From: Bacteroidetes bacterium GWF2_33_16
Lineage (GTDB): Bacteria; Bacteroidota; Bacteroidia; Bacteroidales; UBA12077
Assembly: GCA_001768565.1 (NCBI GenBank)
Contig: MEOE01000023.1
Span: forward strand, 223,215 to 287,214
Direction of reading: 5' to 3'
Length of the DNA: 64,000 nt
Below, in pieces: positions 6,931-64,000 of the stretch. The notes beneath the pieces are model-generated. The model saw only the letters and a program-made list of their open reading frames with translations, was not told the origin of the DNA and did no database searches. The position numbers and the translations under genes were made by a program. Positions within the stretch are counted from its first letter, which is position 1. The number at the start of each line of letters is the position of its first letter.

Positions 6931-7827
6931 CTACTTAATAGGTTTACTTATTAGCAAACCAAGTTTATAAAAAGCAAATAAATTAATGCTAATAAAACCC
7001 GATAGTAATAAGGCTCTAATCATGGGCTTAAAAATCCAAAAAAACACTTTTACAACAAACAAAATCCTGAATTTTGTAAGTGCATTAAAGGTTTTTAATA
7101 AAGCAATTTCCTTTTCAAAATCTGAATCTTTGGAAATATCTCTAATATATAACAAGCTTTCAATTGATTGCTCTGTTTTTATAATAAATTGTTCATTGGT
7201 TTCGAGCTGAGTATGTAAAACAGGATTATTGATATGTTTTATTTGAACACCGGATTTCTTAAGCTGAAACCCAAACCAAGTATCTTCGTGCCCATAACCA
7301 GCTATTCGCTCATCAAACTTTACCGACTTAAAAACATCTCTTCTAATAAGAAAGTTAATTGTTTTAAACGATTTGTATGGATTTTTCGCTCTTTTTTCAG
7401 GAGAAACAACTTCATTGGCGTGTCCGTATTTCCATCGTAATAAAAAATCTTTTTCAGGTCTCTTGTTCGAATAAAATAATCCGCCACAAATAATAGGGTA
7501 ATCGATAGATATTGATGTAATATAATCTAAAACAAATGATTCGGAAACAATCGCTGCGTCGCAATCGAGAAAAAGCATGTTGTCGAACAAGGCATAATCT
7601 AGAAATAAATTACGAATTTTTGATCTTCCAATGTTTTTCTGCAATTCAACATACTTTACATTATCCAATCTAGAAATTGATTCGTTCTGAAGTTTAAAAT
7701 GGATATCAGAGAAATCATCAATTAAAATAATTTCAAACGCAACACTTAACCCTGATGCCTGTTTGTGCAAATCACCAACTAGTTTTACAACATTGTAATT
7801 ATATATAGGGATACAAATTGAAAGCAT
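6931..7827 (-). CDS. Glycosyltransferase family 2 protein with C-terminal hydrophobic segments
   Basis: N-terminus is MLSICIPIYNY...EIILIDDFSD (GT-A fold with a DxD-like motif). LDCDA and GHED motifs are present. Two hydrophobic segments lie at the C-terminus (ILFVVKVFFWIF, ALLLSGFISINLFAFYKLGLLI). Confidence 0.85.
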   Translation of the reverse strand: MLSICIPIYNYNVVKLVGDLHKQASGLSVAFEIILIDDFSDIHFKLQNESISRLDNVKYVELQKNIGRSKIRNLFLDYALFDNMLFLDCDAAIVSESFVLDYITSISIDYPIICGGLFYSNKRPEKDFLLRWKYGHANEVVSPEKRAKNPYKSFKTINFLIRRDVFKSVKFDERIAGYGHEDTWFGFQLKKSGVQIKHINNPVLHTQLETNEQFIIKTEQSIESLLYIRDISKDSDFEKEIALLKTFNALTKFRILFVVKVFFWIFKPMIRALLLSGFISINLFAFYKLGLLISKPIK

Positions 7828-16355: not shown

Positions 16356-16973
16356 CTATTCCTTAACATAATTCTTGTCCTTAATAGTACATCCAATCGC
16401 TTTTGTAAAATCAGTATCTGGATTCTTGCCATCAAGTAATGTATTTACTGCATTGGCCAAGTATTTCTGAGTTACAGCCGAGGCATCTTTGTAATTATCA
16501 TCTATTGCGCCAATATATTTAACAACAAAATCTTTTCCTTCTTTCTTTAACAAATAGATATGAGGTGTTCGTTTAGCTCCATAAATTTTATATACTTCCT
16601 GGTTTGAATCGAACAGATAAGAGAATGTAAACTCTTTTTCTTTTGCGCGTACAATCATTTTCTCGTACGAATCTTCTGGTGACAATACCGGATCGTTTGG
16701 ATTAATTGCAATTACCGGATATCCTTTTGCTCTGAATTCTTTATCTAATTCAATAATCCTGTCTTCGTAAGCAATGGCATACGGACAATGATTGCATGTA
16801 AAAATTACAATTGCACCTTTCTCTGCTGGTTTATAACTATAAAGAGAAATTTCTTTACCATCCACATCTTTCAATTTAAAGTCGGCTGCTTTGTCACCTG
16901 ATTTGTATCCTTGTGCAAAAATTGAGGACAAGCTAATACTCATAATTAAAATTATAAAAATTGTTTTTTTCAT
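16356..16973 (-). CDS. Thioredoxin-fold (redoxin/AhpC-TSA-like) secreted protein
   Basis: Signal peptide present. CNHCPY (CxxC) motif sits in a thioredoxin-fold context (VIFTCNHCPYA). Confidence 0.8.
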   Translation of the reverse strand: MKKTIFIILIMSISLSSIFAQGYKSGDKAADFKLKDVDGKEISLYSYKPAEKGAIVIFTCNHCPYAIAYEDRIIELDKEFRAKGYPVIAINPNDPVLSPEDSYEKMIVRAKEKEFTFSYLFDSNQEVYKIYGAKRTPHIYLLKKEGKDFVVKYIGAIDDNYKDASAVTQKYLANAVNTLLDGKNPDTDFTKAIGCTIKDKNYVKE

Positions 16974-17083
16974 GATATTTTGGATTTAGTTTAACTTATT
17001 TTATTTGGTTGCTGGTTTCTAGTAAATTGTTTTAATAATACTGTTTACTGCCTACTGCTACTAATAATAACTACCAATACTAA

Positions 17084-17146
17084 TGTCCTCGTTTTCTTAC
17101 TCTCTCAATCTCACTCTGTCTTCATCTCCCCCTCTCTAATTTTCTC
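17084..17146. other. Polypyrimidine (plus strand) tract in an ORF-free 200-nt spacer
   Basis: 53 of 63 nt are C or T (tgtcctcgttttcttactctctcaatctcactctgtcttcatctccccctctctaattttctc). The tract is preceded by ctactgctactaataataactaccaatactaat. It is followed by cgcagagccgcaaag. Confidence 0.6.
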
Positions 17147-17174
17147 GCAGAGCCGCAAAGCATCTAAAACATTA

Positions 17175-17657
17175 TTAACTGATTACTCTCTTCAGCTCTT
17201 TCACTAGTTCTTCGTATGTAAATGATTGCTCAAAGAACAATCGCATATTCTTGTTAAAAATCAGTGTTGCAGGCAATGCTCCCGACCAGTCTGGACTTAC
17301 TTTATCAATCCAGAAATTGCTGTTAGGATCATCTAGAATTACAATGCGAGGTTTTAGCGAATGTCTTTCAGCAAAATTTTTCACTCTTGTTTGATAGTCT
17401 TTCCCAAAATCAAGGCTAACCAAAATAACAACTACTTTTTTATTTTTATAATTGGCATCCAATTGATTAAAGGCAGGCATTTCCTCAACACAGGGCTTGC
17501 ACCATGTTGCCCAAAAATTAATTACGTAGGTAGTGTCATCCTTCTGGTTTAGCAAAGGCTCTAGCTGCTCAAAATTATAAATTGGATAATGCTGCGAATA
17601 GCTATTTTGAGCAACTACGATAAAAAAAATAATGCTTATAAGAATTTTAATTTTCAT
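17175..17657 (-). CDS. TlpA family thiol:disulfide oxidoreductase
   Basis: Signal peptide present. FWATWCKPC active-site motif. Confidence 0.85.
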   Translation of the reverse strand: MKIKILISIIFFIVVAQNSYSQHYPIYNFEQLEPLLNQKDDTTYVINFWATWCKPCVEEMPAFNQLDANYKNKKVVVILVSLDFGKDYQTRVKNFAERHSLKPRIVILDDPNSNFWIDKVSPDWSGALPATLIFNKNMRLFFEQSFTYEELVKELKRVIS

Positions 17658-17790: not shown

Positions 17791-20421
17791 ATGAAACAAA
17801 TACTTTTTTTCACGCGGATCATTAGTTTTTGTATGATTGCCCAGCTCCTTCTGTTAAACAATAATACATTGCTGGCACAACAAACCACAATTCCAACACC
17901 CGAAAGTTATTTTGGATTTAAGCCCGGAACCGACAAAATGCTTTTTAACTACGAAAGCTTAACTGCCTACTTACTAAAACTGGATGAATCATCGCCTATG
18001 GTAAAAATGATTCAGATAGGTAAGTCGCCCATGGGAAAACCAATGTATCTTGTTTTTATTTCATCAGCAGAAAATATTAATAACCTCGACAGACTTAAGT
18101 TTATTAATCGTGAGTTGGCATTAAATCCGAATCTTACTACTACGCAGGTTAACGAATATGTAAACGAAGGCAAAGTTTTCTCACTTTTCACTCTATCAAT
18201 GCATTCGAACGAAGTTGCACCAGCACAGGCAGCCCCACTTATTGCTTACGAAATGGTTACATCAACAGATAAAAATTTAACCAAATGGCTCAATGATGTA
18301 GTTTATATGGTAGTGCCAAATCATAATCCGGATGGGATGAACATGGTTGTTGACAATTACAACAAATACAAAGAAACAAAATATGATGGAGCATCGTTGC
18401 CAGGGTTATATCATAAATATGTTGGTCATGATAATAACCGCGACTTTGTTGCCTTAACACAAGACGACACAAAAGCCATTGCGGCTATTTTTAACAAAGA
18501 TTGGTTTCCTCAGGTTATGGTAGAAAAACACCAGATGGGATCGAACGGACCTCGCTATTTTGTGTCACCTCCTCACGATCCAATTGCAGAGAATATTGAT
18601 GCTGGATTGTGGAACTGGATGAAAATTTTTGGCGCAAACACTATCACCAAAATGACTGATGCTGGACTTACTGGCGTTTCGCAAAACTATTTGTTTGATG
18701 ATTATTGGCCAGGAGCTACTGAAACTTGTATATGGAAAAACGTAATTGGAATGCTAACAGAAGCTGCAAGTGTAAAATATGCAACCCCAATCTATATCGA
18801 ACCGAATGAATTAAGAGTTGGCGGAAAAGGAATGGGAGAATACAAGAAGAGTATTAACATGCCCGAGCCATGGACTGGTGGATGGTGGCGTTTAAGTGAC
18901 CTTGTGAATTATGAGATTGTTTCTACCATGTCGTATATCGAAACATCATCTATTTATAAAAAAGAAATACTCCAATTTAGAAATGATATTTGTAAAAAAG
19001 AAGTAAATAAAGGACTTACAGAAGCTCCTTACTATTATATTTTCCCAAAGAATCAAGCCGATCAAAGCGAATTGGTAAACCTGGTAAATCTTTTAGACGA
19101 ACAAGGAGTAAATGTTTTTGAACTCGATAAGGATGTTCAGATTAACAACACAAGCTATTATAAAGGTGATATTATTGTACCATTAAATCAGCCATTCAGA
19201 TCGTTTATAAAAGAAATGCTCGAATCGCAGGAATTTCCTGCTCGCCATTATACTCCCGATGGACTTTTAATTGAACCATACGATATTACTTCGTGGTCGT
19301 TGCCTTTGCATCGGGGAGTCAAAGTAAAAGAAATAAATAAAAATTTTGTTCAGCTTAAAGAGGCATACAAACCAGTTTCAATTCCATTTACATGGTTTAA
19401 CACAAAGAATGAAAATTACACATCAATTCTTTTAACATCGTCAAACAATAACAGTTACAAAGCTGCATTTACTGCTCTTAATGCTGGTCTTAAAACCGAA
19501 CAAATTACCGAAGATTATTTGTATAACAACACATTGGTTCCGGCAGGCAGTTTTATTATTTACAAAGGTAGTAATATGAATAAAGTTTTTGATGTGTTAA
19601 CTGTAGATCCAACTTATATTACTGGCGATTTTAATGCGAAAAAGAAGGCTGTTACCATGCCACGAATAGCATTTGTTGAAAGCTGGTTTCATGCTATGGA
19701 TGCTGGATGGACAAGGTTTGTGCTTGACTCGTATGGTATTCCGTTTAAGGTTTTACGACCTGCAGATATTGAAACAGCAGATTTGGAAAAAACCTTTGAT
19801 CTGATAATTATTCCTGATGAACAAAAATCAGTTTTACTGGATGGTAAATACTCAAGACAAAACGAGCAATATTTTATGTCTTATCCGCCAGAATACTTAA
19901 AAGGAATGGGTAAAAAAGGACATGAAAAATTACTGAAATATATCAATAACGGAGGCAAGGCTATTGCCTGGAGCGATGCAACAGAGCTTTTCTCAGGGCT
20001 TCAATCCTATGCAATTGACGAGAAAACAACTGAGCAGTTTGAATTTCCTGTTAAAAATGTTTCGGAGCAAATTCAAAAATCAGGTTTTCAATGCCCCGGA
20101 TCATTATTAAGAATTGATCTTATAAAACATCCTATAACGTATGGATTACCAAGTGAAATAGGTGTTTTTCATCGCGAAGGACCCATTTTCAGAACCTGGC
20201 AGCCTAGCTTTGATGTTGACCGAAGAGTAATAGGGACATTTCCAGAAAAGGATATATTACTTAGTGGTTATGCCGAAAATGAAGAAAAGATTGGTAACGC
20301 AACTTCCATTGTTTGGTTGAAAAAAGGCAAAGGACAAGTTGTTTTGTTTAGTTTCAGTCCGCAATTCAGAGCCTCAACACCCGGAACGTATAAGTTGCTG
20401 TTTAACTCGATACTTTTATAA
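17791..20421 (+). CDS. M14 family zinc carboxypeptidase-like protein (876 aa)
   Basis: Signal peptide present. HSNE (HxxE zinc motif) and the VPNHNPDG block are characteristic of M14. A long C-terminal extension follows. Confidence 0.85.
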   Translation: MKQILFFTRIISFCMIAQLLLLNNNTLLAQQTTIPTPESYFGFKPGTDKMLFNYESLTAYLLKLDESSPMVKMIQIGKSPMGKPMYLVFISSAENINNLDRLKFINRELALNPNLTTTQVNEYVNEGKVFSLFTLSMHSNEVAPAQAAPLIAYEMVTSTDKNLTKWLNDVVYMVVPNHNPDGMNMVVDNYNKYKETKYDGASLPGLYHKYVGHDNNRDFVALTQDDTKAIAAIFNKDWFPQVMVEKHQMGSNGPRYFVSPPHDPIAENIDAGLWNWMKIFGANTITKMTDAGLTGVSQNYLFDDYWPGATETCIWKNVIGMLTEAASVKYATPIYIEPNELRVGGKGMGEYKKSINMPEPWTGGWWRLSDLVNYEIVSTMSYIETSSIYKKEILQFRNDICKKEVNKGLTEAPYYYIFPKNQADQSELVNLVNLLDEQGVNVFELDKDVQINNTSYYKGDIIVPLNQPFRSFIKEMLESQEFPARHYTPDGLLIEPYDITSWSLPLHRGVKVKEINKNFVQLKEAYKPVSIPFTWFNTKNENYTSILLTSSNNNSYKAAFTALNAGLKTEQITEDYLYNNTLVPAGSFIIYKGSNMNKVFDVLTVDPTYITGDFNAKKKAVTMPRIAFVESWFHAMDAGWTRFVLDSYGIPFKVLRPADIETADLEKTFDLIIIPDEQKSVLLDGKYSRQNEQYFMSYPPEYLKGMGKKGHEKLLKYINNGGKAIAWSDATELFSGLQSYAIDEKTTEQFEFPVKNVSEQIQKSGFQCPGSLLRIDLIKHPITYGLPSEIGVFHREGPIFRTWQPSFDVDRRVIGTFPEKDILLSGYAENEEKIGNATSIVWLKKGKGQVVLFSFSPQFRASTPGTYKLLFNSILL

Positions 20422-20446
20422 ATAGCTACTAGCTTTTAGCTATCAG

Positions 20447-20488
20447 AAAAAAGAGTAAAGACGCCAAGTTTGGCGTCTTTACTCTTTT
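20447..20488. terminator. Strong bidirectional rho-independent terminator
   Basis: AAGAGTAAAGACGCC / GGCGTCTTTACTCTT, a ~15-bp perfect stem (20451-20465 / 20472-20486). A-runs and T-runs flank both sides. Confidence 0.85.
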
Positions 20489-20510
20489 AAAAATTAACCC
20501 TATTTTACCT

Positions 20511-20626
20511 AAAAAAGCAGAGCAAGATCGCCAAACCAACCGGGCAAATCGGGGATAAACATGAAGGTTTAATTTCAGGGGATGTGATTTACTAACCCGG
20601 GTAAATCAACTAACTTCTTGCTCTGC
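20511..20626 (-). ncRNA. Candidate small structured RNA (rod-like; family unknown, possibly 6S-like)
   Basis: A 10-bp perfect closing helix pairs 20517-20526 with 20617-20626. Inner helices are 20540-20544/20596-20600, 20546-20550/20586-20590 and 20556-20560/20567-20571. The element is locally GC-enriched. On the minus strand the closing helix is followed directly by U6 (A6 at 20511-20516). A promoter-like box lies immediately upstream. Confidence 0.4.
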
Positions 20627-20657
20627 CAAAATTGCTCTACAACAATAAGATTAACAA
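20627..20657 (-). promoter_or_regulatory. Putative Bacteroidota-type promoter for the candidate sRNA
   Basis: Read on the minus strand: TTG (20657-20655), a 20-nt spacer, then CAATTTTG (20634-20627). This is 7/8 to the TAnnTTTG -7 consensus. It abuts the closing helix. Confidence 0.35.
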
Positions 20658-20843
20658 GAATAATTTTACCCTATTGGTTTTATACTATTATTAACTTTGT
20701 GCACCAAATGGCAGGATTACATTTTACAAGTCTTGAGATTGGTGAGAATTCATTATTCAAACCCATTTTCTATAATTATTGTGCTTCTCTGGAATTATTT
20801 TGAACGTAACCGCAAAAACAATGAATTAATAAAACGAACTTTT

Positions 20844-21563
20844 TTATTTTGAATTGATTCTATTAAAGAAATGTTCCCTGTAGCTATAACCAATTGGAAT
20901 CTTATTTTGCCCAATAGTTATCTGATGTTTTTCAATTAAATCTATTTGATTTAAATTAATTATATATGACTTATGAATCCTTATAAACCTTTCGTCAGAT
21001 ATCAGATCAAGCACTTCTTTCATAGTAAAAACTGAAATGATTCGTTCTACCTGAGTAAAAAAGTAAACATAGTTACTATCGCTCTGGATATATAAAATAT
21101 CATCTTTTAAGAGCTTATGTATTTTGGTGCCACTTTTTACCAGAATAAAAGGATCGGATTTTTTACTTTCTTTTTGCGACAATTCAATTTCATTTTTTTC
21201 GTGATGTTGTAAATTGAATTGTTTAAGTGCCTTGTTAACAGATTTTACAAACCTGTTAAAATCAATTGGCTTAAGCAGGTAATCAACAACATTAAACTCG
21301 AAGCTATCAACGGCATACTCAGAATAAGCAGTTGTAAAAACCACCATGGGTTGTGCTTCTAGTGTTCTAAGAAAATCTAAACCTGATAAATTAGGCATTT
21401 CGATATCAAGAAAAATCAAATCAATTTTATTCTTTTGCAGGTATTCAATTGCCTTGAGCGAATTCGTAAAGGTTTCTTTTAATGTCATAAACGGAACTTT
21501 CGATGCATAATTTTTTATAACATCCAGAGCTCTAGGTTCATCATCAATTGCTATGCAGTTCAT
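20844..21563 (-). CDS. LytTR family DNA-binding response regulator
   Basis: MNCIAIDDEPRALDVI receiver N-terminus with DIEMP. The C-terminal LytTR block is FIRIHKSYIINL. I prefer ATG at 21563 over the TTG at 21581. Confidence 0.9.
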   Translation of the reverse strand: MNCIAIDDEPRALDVIKNYASKVPFMTLKETFTNSLKAIEYLQKNKIDLIFLDIEMPNLSGLDFLRTLEAQPMVVFTTAYSEYAVDSFEFNVVDYLLKPIDFNRFVKSVNKALKQFNLQHHEKNEIELSQKESKKSDPFILVKSGTKIHKLLKDDILYIQSDSNYVYFFTQVERIISVFTMKEVLDLISDERFIRIHKSYIINLNQIDLIEKHQITIGQNKIPIGYSYREHFFNRINSK

Positions 21564-21570
21564 AGAAATA

Positions 21571-22572
21571 TTATAATTCAATTTTTAAATCCACAAAAAA
21601 GAAATGATCATCCGAATTAATTATTAAATTATGTCTTTTTGGATAAACTAAGTTAAGTCTTCTTTTAACATTATCAAGACCAATTCCCGAATTCCTTTTA
21701 TCATTTCTGCTATTTAAATTGCCAATAGGATTTTTAACAATCAGGTTAAGCATGCGATTATCAATTGTAAGCGAGATATCAATATAATTGTGACTATCGA
21801 CACTTAAACCATGTTTAAATGCATTTTCGATAAACGGAATAAGAATCATTGGGCAAATGAATATTGATTTAAAGTTATCTGTTATTTGAAGGTTTACTTT
21901 TAATAAATCCTGATTTTCGAAACGAAGTTTTTGAAGCTCTATAAAGTTTCTGATATATGTAATTTCTTTTTCTAAACTCACTAGTTCCACATTACTTTCA
22001 TATATCATGTATCGCATTAATTGAGATAATTTAAGCAATCCATTTGCTGTTTCGTTATCATTATTTTTTTGAGCAATAGAAAAAAGGTTGTTAAGTGTAT
22101 TAAATAAAAAATGAGGGTTTACCTGGCTTTTTAACAAATTCAATTCCGCCTTTAATTGTTTGGCTTCCATTTCCTGCATCATGTATTGTTGATTTATTCC
22201 TCTTCGAAAATATCGTAAGCTTGTTGTTATAGTCAGTATTATTAAAACATCAGTATATCCTGATCTTTCAAAAACACTTTCATAAAGGATTTTATTAACT
22301 GATAATTCTGATAAATAGCCAAAAAGCAATATGATAAGTATTATTAATCCGGAATAAATTAAATATTTACGTTTGTTGAAAAAACGGGTGTGAATATAAA
22401 AATGGGAATAAGATGCAAGCATCCATGGGAAAATAAAAGCAAAACTCATTCGTATACCATAGTTTATAGATTGATTTCTCGATCCAAAAAAAATGAAAAC
22501 GGCATAAAGTAGACTCCAGAAATAGAAATGGTATGCAATGCGGTGATTTAGAATGCCGAAAATCTTATTCAT
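21571..22572 (-). CDS. LytS/YehU-type sensor histidine kinase (His_kinase PF06580-like)
   Basis: Four N-terminal TM helices. The QVNPHFLFNTLNNL H-box is typical of LytS-type kinases. A C-terminal ATPase block is present (GIGLDNVKRRL). Confidence 0.85.
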   Translation of the reverse strand: MNKIFGILNHRIAYHFYFWSLLYAVFIFFGSRNQSINYGIRMSFAFIFPWMLASYSHFYIHTRFFNKRKYLIYSGLIILIILLFGYLSELSVNKILYESVFERSGYTDVLIILTITTSLRYFRRGINQQYMMQEMEAKQLKAELNLLKSQVNPHFLFNTLNNLFSIAQKNNDNETANGLLKLSQLMRYMIYESNVELVSLEKEITYIRNFIELQKLRFENQDLLKVNLQITDNFKSIFICPMILIPFIENAFKHGLSVDSHNYIDISLTIDNRMLNLIVKNPIGNLNSRNDKRNSGIGLDNVKRRLNLVYPKRHNLIINSDDHFFFVDLKIEL

Positions 22573-63215: not shown

Positions 63216-64000
63216 TTAGTCAATATTCAATGAAAAGCTAAAAGTACTTCCTTTACTAGGCTCGCTGGTAACCTTTATAGTTCCTCCATTTTGCTGGATA
63301 AACTCTTTGCATAGGATTAAACCAAGACCAGATCCTTTTTCGTTTTGTGTGCCAGGAGTTGTATGATGTTGATCTATTCTGAAAAGCTTATCAAGATGTT
63401 CTTTGCTAATACCTATTCCGTTATCTGAAACACTTACAGTACAAATTTTATCTTCAGCATTGCAACTGATTCTAATTTCTCCATTTTCGTTAGTAAACTT
63501 AGCGGCGTTAGAGATTAAATTACGAACAACAGTATTAATCATATTTTCATCAGCAAAAACATCTAATTTCGATGGAACATCTATGTAAAGAGAAATGTTT
63601 TTTGAGTCTAGTTTGTTTTTTATCAATTCAATATTTTCCTTTAATACGCCAACAATATCTATTGTTCTGGGATTAAATTTTATTTCGCCCATTTGCGAGG
63701 TCGACCAATCTAATAAATTCTCAAGCAAGTTATAGGTTGTTTGAGATAGTTTGTTAAGATCAGATATGAATTTTTTGGTTTTTTCTTTACTAAAATCCTC
63801 AATATCAGTCAAAATATAGGTAGTGGAGTTTAAGAAAGTACTTATTGGATTACGTAAATCGTGAGCAATAATTCGAAAGAACTTATTTTTTGTTGCATTA
63901 CTAATCTCCAGTTGGTCTTTCTTTTTCTGTATTTCTTCTTTCTGATTTTCAAGTTCAATATTTTTGGCACTAATCCATTCATTGGCATCTTTTAGGTGTT
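63216..64000 (-). CDS. Sensor histidine kinase, 5'-partial (continues beyond the window end)
   Basis: The reading frame stays open upstream of the track's TTG at 63812. My translation gives ...KNKFFRIIAHDLRNPISTFLN (H-box) preceded by a coiled coil. The C-terminal HATPase_c blocks are N (VVRNLISNAAKFT), G1 (DNGIGI) and G2 (GSGLGL). Confidence 0.85.
   Translation of the reverse strand, partial: HLKDANEWISAKNIELENQKEEIQKKKDQLEISNATKNKFFRIIAHDLRNPISTFLNSTTYILTDIEDFSKEKTKKFISDLNKLSQTTYNLLENLLDWSTSQMGEIKFNPRTIDIVGVLKENIELIKNKLDSKNISLYIDVPSKLDVFADENMINTVVRNLISNAAKFTNENGEIRISCNAEDKICTVSVSDNGIGISKEHLDKLFRIDQHHTTPGTQNEKGSGLGLILCKEFIQQNGGTIKVTSEPSKGSTFSFSLNID

Follow-up and report, generated by a model that had tools for sequence, protein, structure and literature searches.

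The 6S RNAs form an extended rod of about 150–200 nt that spans the footprint of the RNA polymerase and has a large central bubble, open on both strands and conserved in position. They bind the polymerase holoenzyme, serve as templates for product RNAs, and conserve their shape rather than their sequence. GibS and similar trans-acting small RNAs of Bacteroides have their own promoter and terminator. In general, regulatory RNAs of the Bacteroidota are poorly charted, and the uncultured lineages are almost blank in this respect. The Bacteroidota representative of 6S is the 6S-Flavo motif (RF01685; PMC2864571), and the authors of the 2010 alignment thought that it was possibly only part of a longer 6S hairpin (PMC2864571). 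Comparative genomics also identified Bacteroidales-1, Flavo-1, and Bacteroides-1 as orphan structured RNA motifs of Bacteroidota (Weinberg et al. 2010, PMC2864571).

Here, we analyzed an element from an intergenic region of the window, by which we mean the whole 64-kb stretch of DNA under study. The element resembles 6S and 6S-Flavo (RF00013, RF01685) as a stand-alone, single-copy rod with a closing stem, internal loops, and a distal stem. Unlike these RNAs, it has a length fixed by a terminator and an asymmetric, non-conserved main loop, and its conservation is concentrated in the apex. With Bacteroidales-1, Flavo-1, and Bacteroides-1 it shares the intergenic location, the support by covariation, the restriction to a lineage, and the frequent metagenomic origin, but there was no match to these motifs, and sequence, fold, and host clade are different. 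The host clade here consists of uncultured Bacteroidales from groundwater, sediment, and marine sources. The GibS-type small RNAs are similar in being independent units of about 100–150 nt with a conserved single-stranded region as a possible seed. Their sequence is unrelated, and in the element described here almost all of the RNA folds into a single long hairpin in which the 5' and 3' ends pair with each other. The bacterial small SRP (4.5S) RNA (RF00169) is likewise a rod-like single hairpin of about 110 nt in which the stems vary and the apical domain is conserved, but the element lacks a GNRA tetraloop and the loop motifs of domain IV, and its apex has a different sequence. From the comparison of sequences presented below, we consider it probable that the element constitutes an autonomous gene on the minus strand, which gives rise to a non-coding, rod-shaped RNA of about 110–125 nt from an undescribed family of uncultured Bacteroidales.

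The Intergenic Region and the Predicted RNA in the Window

The intergenic region comprises 422 bp (20422–20843) between the gene for an M14 peptidase on the left side (17791–20421, plus strand) and the gene for a LytTR response regulator on the right side (20844–21581, minus strand), which is followed by the gene for its histidine kinase. The original prediction of a small RNA at this site had described the gap as free of credible open reading frames and as harboring a GC-enriched segment, and our analysis agreed with both statements. Open reading frames for 17, 36, 51, and 61 aa are present but not conserved as proteins; a coding function was rejected, as the tblastn matches reflected nucleotide conservation only. 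The GC content is 0.38–0.42 over the element versus 0.25–0.32 in the AT-rich gap to the right. The element is present once in the window. Thiol-redox genes are abundant around the locus (16365–17657, minus strand).

The core of the putative small RNA, from closing helix to closing helix, comprises about 112 nt (20516–20627, minus strand). It was delimited by the match to the covariance model and by the rod fold, and the 5' end may be located up to about 13 nt further upstream. The covariance models matched positions 20509–20628 of the minus strand with 117–130 bits. Folding of the minus-strand RNA (114 nt) resulted in a rod with a minimum energy of −35.2 kcal/mol and a z-score of −3.2; with extra flanks, the z-score of the window element was −1.9.

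The closing helix had been described as a perfect inverted repeat of 10 bp. The repeat is in fact perfect over 11 bp (20517–20527 with 20616–20626), and as RNA it forms 12 pairs including an outer G.U pair. This helix, P1, consists of the 5' arm GGCAGAGCAAGA (20616–20627, minus strand) and the 3' arm UCUUGCUCUGCU (20516–20527, minus strand), and 96.6% of the cells are paired over the alignment. The 3' arm is directly followed by a tract of six U (20511–20516, minus strand), which corresponds to the T6 run noticed before and which together with P1 is the presumed intrinsic terminator and 3' end. The nucleotides between the closing helix and the inner helices had been regarded as unpaired (14–15 nt on each side). 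This was correct for only a part of them, since positions 20606–20610 pair with 20530–20534 in a G.U-rich helix. We named this helix P1b; its arms on the minus strand are GUUGA (20606–20610) and UUGGC (20530–20534), and 93.7% of the cells are paired.

Helix P2 is formed by CCGGGU (20595–20600, minus strand) and GCCCGG (20540–20545, minus strand), and the apical hairpin P3 has the sequence UAAAC-CUUCAU-GUUUA (20556–20571, minus strand), with 97% of the cells paired and a varying loop. The CCGGG/CCCGG pairing (20540–20544 with 20596–20600) and the TAAAC-loop-GTTTA hairpin (20556–20571) had both been recognized in the original prediction, and both are backed by covariation in relatives. An additional helix, AAATC/GATTT, forms all five pairs in the window but only 0–3 of five pairs in 14 relatives; it is specific for the window and not a helix of the family. 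The 5' side of the apical region, UUAGUAAAUCACAUCCCCUGAAAU (20572–20594, minus strand), is mostly unpaired and conserved, as judged from conserved columns in the 15-member alignment, with the family consensus AU-N-CC-Y-Y-U-R-A-A.

Homologs and Their Gene Contexts

We identified 16 distinct homologs on contigs of related uncultured Bacteroidales from genome and metagenome collections. Each positive locus always had a single copy. The family is composed of two subgroups with a mutual identity of only 40–50%.

A search that used the M14 protein as anchor, with one genome per species, revealed a copy in 1 of 80 related loci. This copy in L002 (GWB2_32_14) is 77% identical and is located directly after the stop codon of the M14 gene, and the gene on the side away from M14 is different from that in the window. 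Scanning of metagenome contigs with a DNA pattern gave six more matches from six different samples, and three loci (L088, L089, and L094) were added when closer M14 proteins were looked up. The close homologs are found in L002 and L094, L081 and L084, L082, L085, L088, and L089, and the RNA of these close relatives is 72–97% identical. Four gene contexts occur among them: the element follows the M14 gene and a hairpin terminator, directly joins the stop codon of the M14 gene, follows a DUF1761 gene and a terminator, or lies between a gene for a TPR histidine kinase and a gene for a SnoaL-like lipoprotein. In L002 (6616–6631) and L094 (about 7607–7622), the M14 open reading frame is three codons longer and ends with ...LLPDL because the downstream flank of the RNA abuts the coding sequence; the M14 gene and the RNA are not separated by a terminator hairpin in these two loci.

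The first covariance model was built from the elements of six close relatives and gave full-length matches of 24–30 bits in L004, L007, L008, and L017. Three more loci (L015, L019, and L093) were detected with a second model. These distant members are 40–50% identical to the copy in the window. We consider them as true homologs since the architecture and the upstream sequence blocks are common to both subgroups. Relatives keep the element as a unit of about 170 bp.

Six of the distant loci (L004, L007, L008, L015, L019, and L093) have the same gene order, with the M14 gene and a TPR/PAS kinase gene on the plus strand, the RNA on the minus strand, and a gene for a 192-aa redoxin on the plus strand. 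The order is the same in L017, except that another gene takes the position of the redoxin gene. Consequently, all seven distant loci have a convergent kinase gene on one side of the RNA and a divergent gene on the promoter side, and there is no gene on the same strand upstream or downstream of the RNA. The RNA can therefore be neither a 3' UTR nor a leader at these loci, and it would need its own promoter there. In the window and in L002, a gene on the same strand is located upstream of the RNA.

The synteny with the kinase and redoxin genes spans lineages with M14 proteins that are only 65–70% identical to the protein in the window. In the distant subgroup, the RNA is present in 7 of about 15 loci with an adjoining TPR/PAS kinase gene versus 0 of 8 loci without it, and in L084 the RNA also adjoins a kinase gene. 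This is a weak hint to a functional link between the RNA and the kinase, or the gene order was simply inherited.

Further thiol-redox genes were seen at these loci. Two genes for proteins of the AhpC-TSA/thioredoxin fold are located upstream of the M14 gene in nearly all loci (including L087–L098), and in the distant subgroup (L004–L019, L093) the 192-aa redoxin gene is oriented divergently to the RNA. The TPR/PAS histidine kinase that adjoins the RNA in other lineages has a homolog in the window at 63228–63938 (minus strand), which is 41–44% identical to its C-terminal kinase portion and is encoded at a distance of 43 kb from the RNA.

Covariation, Fold, and Strand of the RNA

Pair statistics were calculated for 32 pairs in an alignment of 15 members. 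Of all cells, 93.3% were paired versus 34–52% when the 3' partners were slid by 1–3 columns; the alignments behind these counts were fitted to the model structure, so that the pairing is somewhat inflated. Both sides were changed in 18 of the 32 pairs, and the observed covariation score was not matched by any of 500 column shuffles. Every helix contributed to these compensatory changes: both sides were changed in 8 of 12 pairs of P1, in 3 of 5 pairs of P1b, in 3 of 6 pairs of P2, in 2 of 4 pairs of P3a, and in 2 of 5 pairs of P3. As the members fall into two tight subgroups, fewer independent substitutions have occurred than the cell counts suggest. Examples for P2 are CCGGG:CCCGG versus CAGA:UCUG and UAGG:CCUG. 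Two pairs of P3 alternate between the subgroups (A-U/U-A and C-G/G.U). RNAalifold predicted the same rod when no stored structure was provided, and the rod was also found by folding of nine members, with z-scores between −2.4 and −6.8.

The helix cells contained 68 G.U but only 9 A.C combinations. Due to this imbalance, the pairing amounts to 93% on the minus strand versus 80% on the plus strand. Helix P1b consists mostly of G.U pairs in the window and can therefore only form on the minus strand. All 15 members have 4–7 U within the 8 nt after P1. The closing helix in front of this tract is GC-rich, which gives the RNA strand a 3' end like that of an intrinsic terminator. The stretch of about 88 nt that is enclosed by P1 is unusual for such a terminator. 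The excess of G.U pairs together with the U tract points to an RNA that is read from the minus strand.

The length of the RNA between the ends of the closing helix varies from 96 to 116 nt among the members. An apical region of about 45 nt is conserved, and even more so within each subgroup, while the stems drift. This region is made up of the P3a/P3 hairpin and the nucleotides on the 5' side of the large internal loop, and its consensus is AU-N-CCYCU-RAA-AUUAARCC ... UUUAA. The largest internal loop has about 18 nt on the 5' side versus about 5 nt on the 3' side in the subgroup of the window, and its shape is different in the distant subgroup.

The close subgroup also retains a local hairpin that competes with the rod, UGAUUUAC...GUAAAUCA. 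The distant subgroup lacks it, and it was left out of the family model for this reason. In the close subgroup only, the loop of this hairpin may form a pseudoknot with CCCGG. An upstream AGAGCAA block could pair with the 3' arm of P1 in the subgroup of the window, but this pairing is not conserved in the distant subgroup and was discarded. The same applied to other motifs searched by eye, since k-turn or C/D boxes, loop E (AGUA/GAA), and attC cores were each present in only some members and the CUGAUGA of a hammerhead core only in L093.

Putative Signals for Transcription Upstream and Downstream of the RNA

According to the original prediction, the RNA was preceded by a promoter-like box, TTG-N20-CAATTTTG. 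The sequence is indeed present in the window (20657–20655 ... 20634–20627), but as a promoter it fits the −33/−7 consensus of Bacteroidota only in the close subgroup. The distant members have CAATATATA instead of CAATTTTG and no TTG at the matching position. Across 14 upstream regions, there was no family-wide match to the Bacteroidota consensus TTTG/TAnnTTTG (−33/−7). The last G of the CAATTTTG box also takes part in the first pair of P1, a helix whose outer pairs show covariation. Because this G is paired in a covarying helix, transcription should start at this position or before.

All 14 loci with available upstream sequence share an arrangement of conserved blocks, TAGGGTA-N15-ATCWTA-N7/8-(A)AGAGCAAT, followed by 5–8 nt to P1. 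In the window, the first block is TAGGGTAA (20666–20673, minus strand), which equals the right-hand copy of the octamer ACCCTATT and is found 43 to 50 nt before position 1 of the model in 14 of 14 loci. The second block is ATCTTA (20646–20651, minus strand; family sequence ATCWTA), and its spacing of 15 nt to TAGGGTA is also fixed in 14 of 14 loci. The third block, AGAGCAAU (20631–20638, minus strand), overlaps the CAATTTTG box (20627–20634) and is kept in 12 of the 14 loci, 5–8 nt before P1.

We conclude that the putative promoter, whatever its type, lies in this conserved upstream region. As a candidate geometry, TAGGGT-N16-ATCWTA may represent −35/−10-like elements, with AGAGCAAU as a short 5' tail. 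The AGAGCAAU block would be either such a tail or a promoter-proximal element. Inspection by eye for consensus sequences of sigma-54 and ECF-type promoters did not reveal a convincing match.

The repeated octamer ACCCTATT is present on both flanks of the region, as described before. In most lineages, the RNA gene is bracketed by TAGGGTWA in the same orientation. The distance of the upstream copy is fixed, and the downstream copy follows the U tract after 6–67 nt. The downstream copy in the window, TAGGGTTA (20495–20502, minus strand), is the left-hand octamer and is preceded by TAGGTAAAA; a similar TTAGGGTTA follows the RNA at the distance given above in most lineages. Downstream copies with the sequence TAGGGT(A/T)A were found in the window and in L007, L008, L015, L017, and L093. 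The 64-kb window contains three TAGGGTWA sequences, and two of them flank the RNA. The repeats may be a pair of operators, a −35-like element together with a second site, or the relic of a duplication.

Downstream of the RNA, a perfect 19-bp hairpin with an A run and a T run on its flanks (20449–20488, strand-neutral) matches the second strong terminator of the original prediction. Equivalents are present in L085, L088, L089, and L082. The hairpin looks like a bidirectional terminator of the M14 gene and a backstop of the small RNA.

The plus strand of the window carries a further promoter-like sequence, the box TACATTTT (20718–20725), which lies some 45 nt beyond TAGGGTA and is directed away from the RNA. 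It matches the −7 consensus of Bacteroidota, and its equivalent in L081 is a perfect TACATTTG. This box is probably a divergent promoter. In the window, it is not followed by a gene on the plus strand.

In L084 (9969–10000) and L081 (700–730), a gene for a 160-aa SnoaL_3 lipoprotein has its ATG 31 nt behind the U tract. Since there is no room for a separate promoter, this gene is probably read through from the promoter of the RNA.

Comparison to Known RNA Families

Neither the window nor 13 other loci matched any of the 4227 families of Rfam 15 at the gathering score. When three members (window, L017, and L008) were compared to Rfam at E ≤ 10, only chance matches were obtained, which comprised models of miRNAs and snoRNAs, a Na+ riboswitch, and a CRISPR repeat. 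The original prediction had considered membership in 6S or 6S-Flavo, and this found no support at either the gathering score or E ≤ 10. The small SRP RNA family (RF00169) also gave no match at E ≤ 10 in the three members. The RNA family is absent from Rfam and previously undescribed, and it belongs to a clade of uncultured Bacteroidales.

The match to the Na+ riboswitch aptamer (RF03071) was obtained by cmscan on the plus strand of the window (20551–20606) with 15 bits, compared to a cut-off of 40.5, and E = 0.4. We regard it as a chance match, since the evidence from structure and G.U pairs favors the other strand.

An integron attC site was also considered. In such sites, the base of the folded hairpin carries the R''/R' core sites RYYYAAC ... 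GTTRRRY. The helix ends read GCAGAGC.../...GCTCTGC in the window and GGCGGAG.../...CTCCGCC in distant members, and conserved GTT/AAC cores were not seen in these sequences; this candidate was rejected.

Discussion

Our analysis strengthened the original prediction of an independent small RNA on the minus strand by the covariation in all helices, the strand-specific G.U pairs, the U tract in 15 of 15 members, and the seven loci without neighbors on the same strand. The family combines support by covariation with the lack of an Rfam match, and a variable stem with an invariant apex. It provides a testable entry for catalogues of RNA families and would improve the annotation of these genomes. It does not overturn an existing concept but is a new instance of a familiar type of object. 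Its putative transcription signals depart from the textbook promoter of Bacteroidota, and the conserved upstream blocks could reveal an alternative class of promoter or regulator.

We propose the following mode of action. RNA polymerase would start at P1 or just upstream of it, and TAGGGTA-N15-ATCWTA-N7/8-AGAGCAAT would serve as promoter and either as site for a regulator or as short 5' tail. Transcription would end at P1 and the U tract, with the hairpin at 20449–20488 as backstop. The long stem would provide stability and display the conserved apex as the working surface. The fast evolution of the stems, which nevertheless stay paired, and the little changed apex suggest a stable handle that presents a surface for recognition, and we propose the UUAGUAAAUCACAUCCCCUGAAAU region (20572–20594) as this putative functional surface. 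We favor the view that the RNA would act in trans through its apex, either by pairing with mRNAs or by binding to a conserved protein. For the C/U-rich loop, purine-rich ribosome-binding regions would be possible partners. Calculations with RNAduplex for the whole RNA and 50 start regions in the window were dominated by long, unspecific duplexes and gave nothing interpretable, and a consistently linked protein gene was not found among the loci.

A protein-binding RNA other than 6S would be a scaffold, decoy, or sponge that carries its protein recognition site in the apex on top of a stable stem, like the SRP 4.5S RNA or Y RNAs. Fast-evolving, covarying stems together with an apical internal loop and hairpin of invariant sequence are typical for RNAs recognized by proteins, and a conserved mRNA target did not emerge from the duplex scan. 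We still judge this role to be unlikely, as no conserved partner gene is linked and the neighbors differ even among close relatives, and as SRP, Y RNA, and other protein-binding families of Rfam were not matched. Quite unlikely is also an action in cis, either as a complex terminator or insulator that separates convergent genes or as the 5' leader or attenuator of a downstream gene on the minus strand. P1 and the U tract do resemble a terminator, a gene on the same strand is present upstream in the window and L002, and the U tract in L081 and L084 is so close to the start of the lipoprotein gene (31 nt) that a separate promoter has no room. However, seven loci have no same-strand gene on either side, the downstream gene is different in every context, and most loci already have a separate strong hairpin terminator behind the element. 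A plain terminator would also not need a conserved apex of 45 nt or conserved upstream blocks.

A compact 6S-type RNA, whose rod with an internal bubble would resemble promoter DNA in the open state and sequester the housekeeping polymerase, appears to us the most improbable of the roles discussed. The rod with closing stem, internal loops, and distal stem, the single copy with its own transcription signals, and the similar length of the 6S-Flavo alignment (about 100–115 nt; PMC2864571 supplement) are in favor of it. On the other hand, RF00013 and RF01685 remained unmatched at the gathering score and at E ≤ 10 (window, L017, and L008), and an RNA of 96–116 nt is shorter than the 150–200 nt of 6S RNAs. 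It can also not be extended to this length, because the covarying closing helix and the U tract fix its size. Furthermore, the largest internal loop is strongly asymmetric (about 18 versus 5 nt) and depends on the subgroup, and it is the sequence of the apex that is conserved here. The original prediction had also mentioned a MITE-like insertion as alternative. The element would then be mobile DNA or a relic of it, with the inverted repeat as terminal repeats and ACCCTATT as target-site duplication. MITEs are indeed similar in their size of about 170 bp, the inverted repeat, the short flanking direct repeats (here TAGGGTWA), and the patchy presence among relatives; close relatives harbor the element in four different gene contexts, and several otherwise syntenic loci lack it. 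We nevertheless regard a mobile element as very improbable. MITEs are scattered over a genome in many near-identical copies, and their target-site duplications vary from one insertion to the next. Only a single copy was seen in every place examined, which includes the 64-kb window and each positive locus (about 0.9 Mb of loci), the pattern scan of metagenomes gave only six matches, each from a different sample, and plasmid, phage, and viral collections showed no similarity to the element. The inverted repeat is not terminal, since about 45–50 nt beyond it are conserved, and this on the promoter side only. The flanking motif is identical across lineages, and the right-hand ACCCTATT is not a target-site duplication because it is a family-wide upstream block at a fixed distance. 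The internal helices covary in a strand-specific way and use G.U pairs, and lineages share the position of the element next to the kinase and redoxin genes. The idea of a cassette with an empty site was discarded as well, since the loci with kinase and redoxin genes but no RNA have different 5' regions and show neither clean deletions nor clean empty sites.

Within our preferred reading of the element as an independent RNA gene, a more specific role can be imagined. The RNA gene and the TAGGGTWA repeats may form a cassette that is gained, lost, or relocated as a unit, or the repeats may be operators of a dedicated regulator, and in either case the RNA would be output or partner of the TPR/PAS histidine-kinase module that adjoins it in many lineages. 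We assign a low probability to this proposal. If true, the RNA would be part of a new regulatory ribonucleoprotein or circuit of this Bacteroidales clade and not a generic base-pairing small RNA.

The hairpin at 20449–20488 showed a further peculiarity. Its similarity to the 3' strand of the RNA at 20519–20536 amounts to 78% (TTGGCGTCTTTACTCT versus TTGGCGATCTTGCTCT), and it looks like a palindromised copy of the 3' end of the RNA. The same hairpin is also present in L085 and L089.
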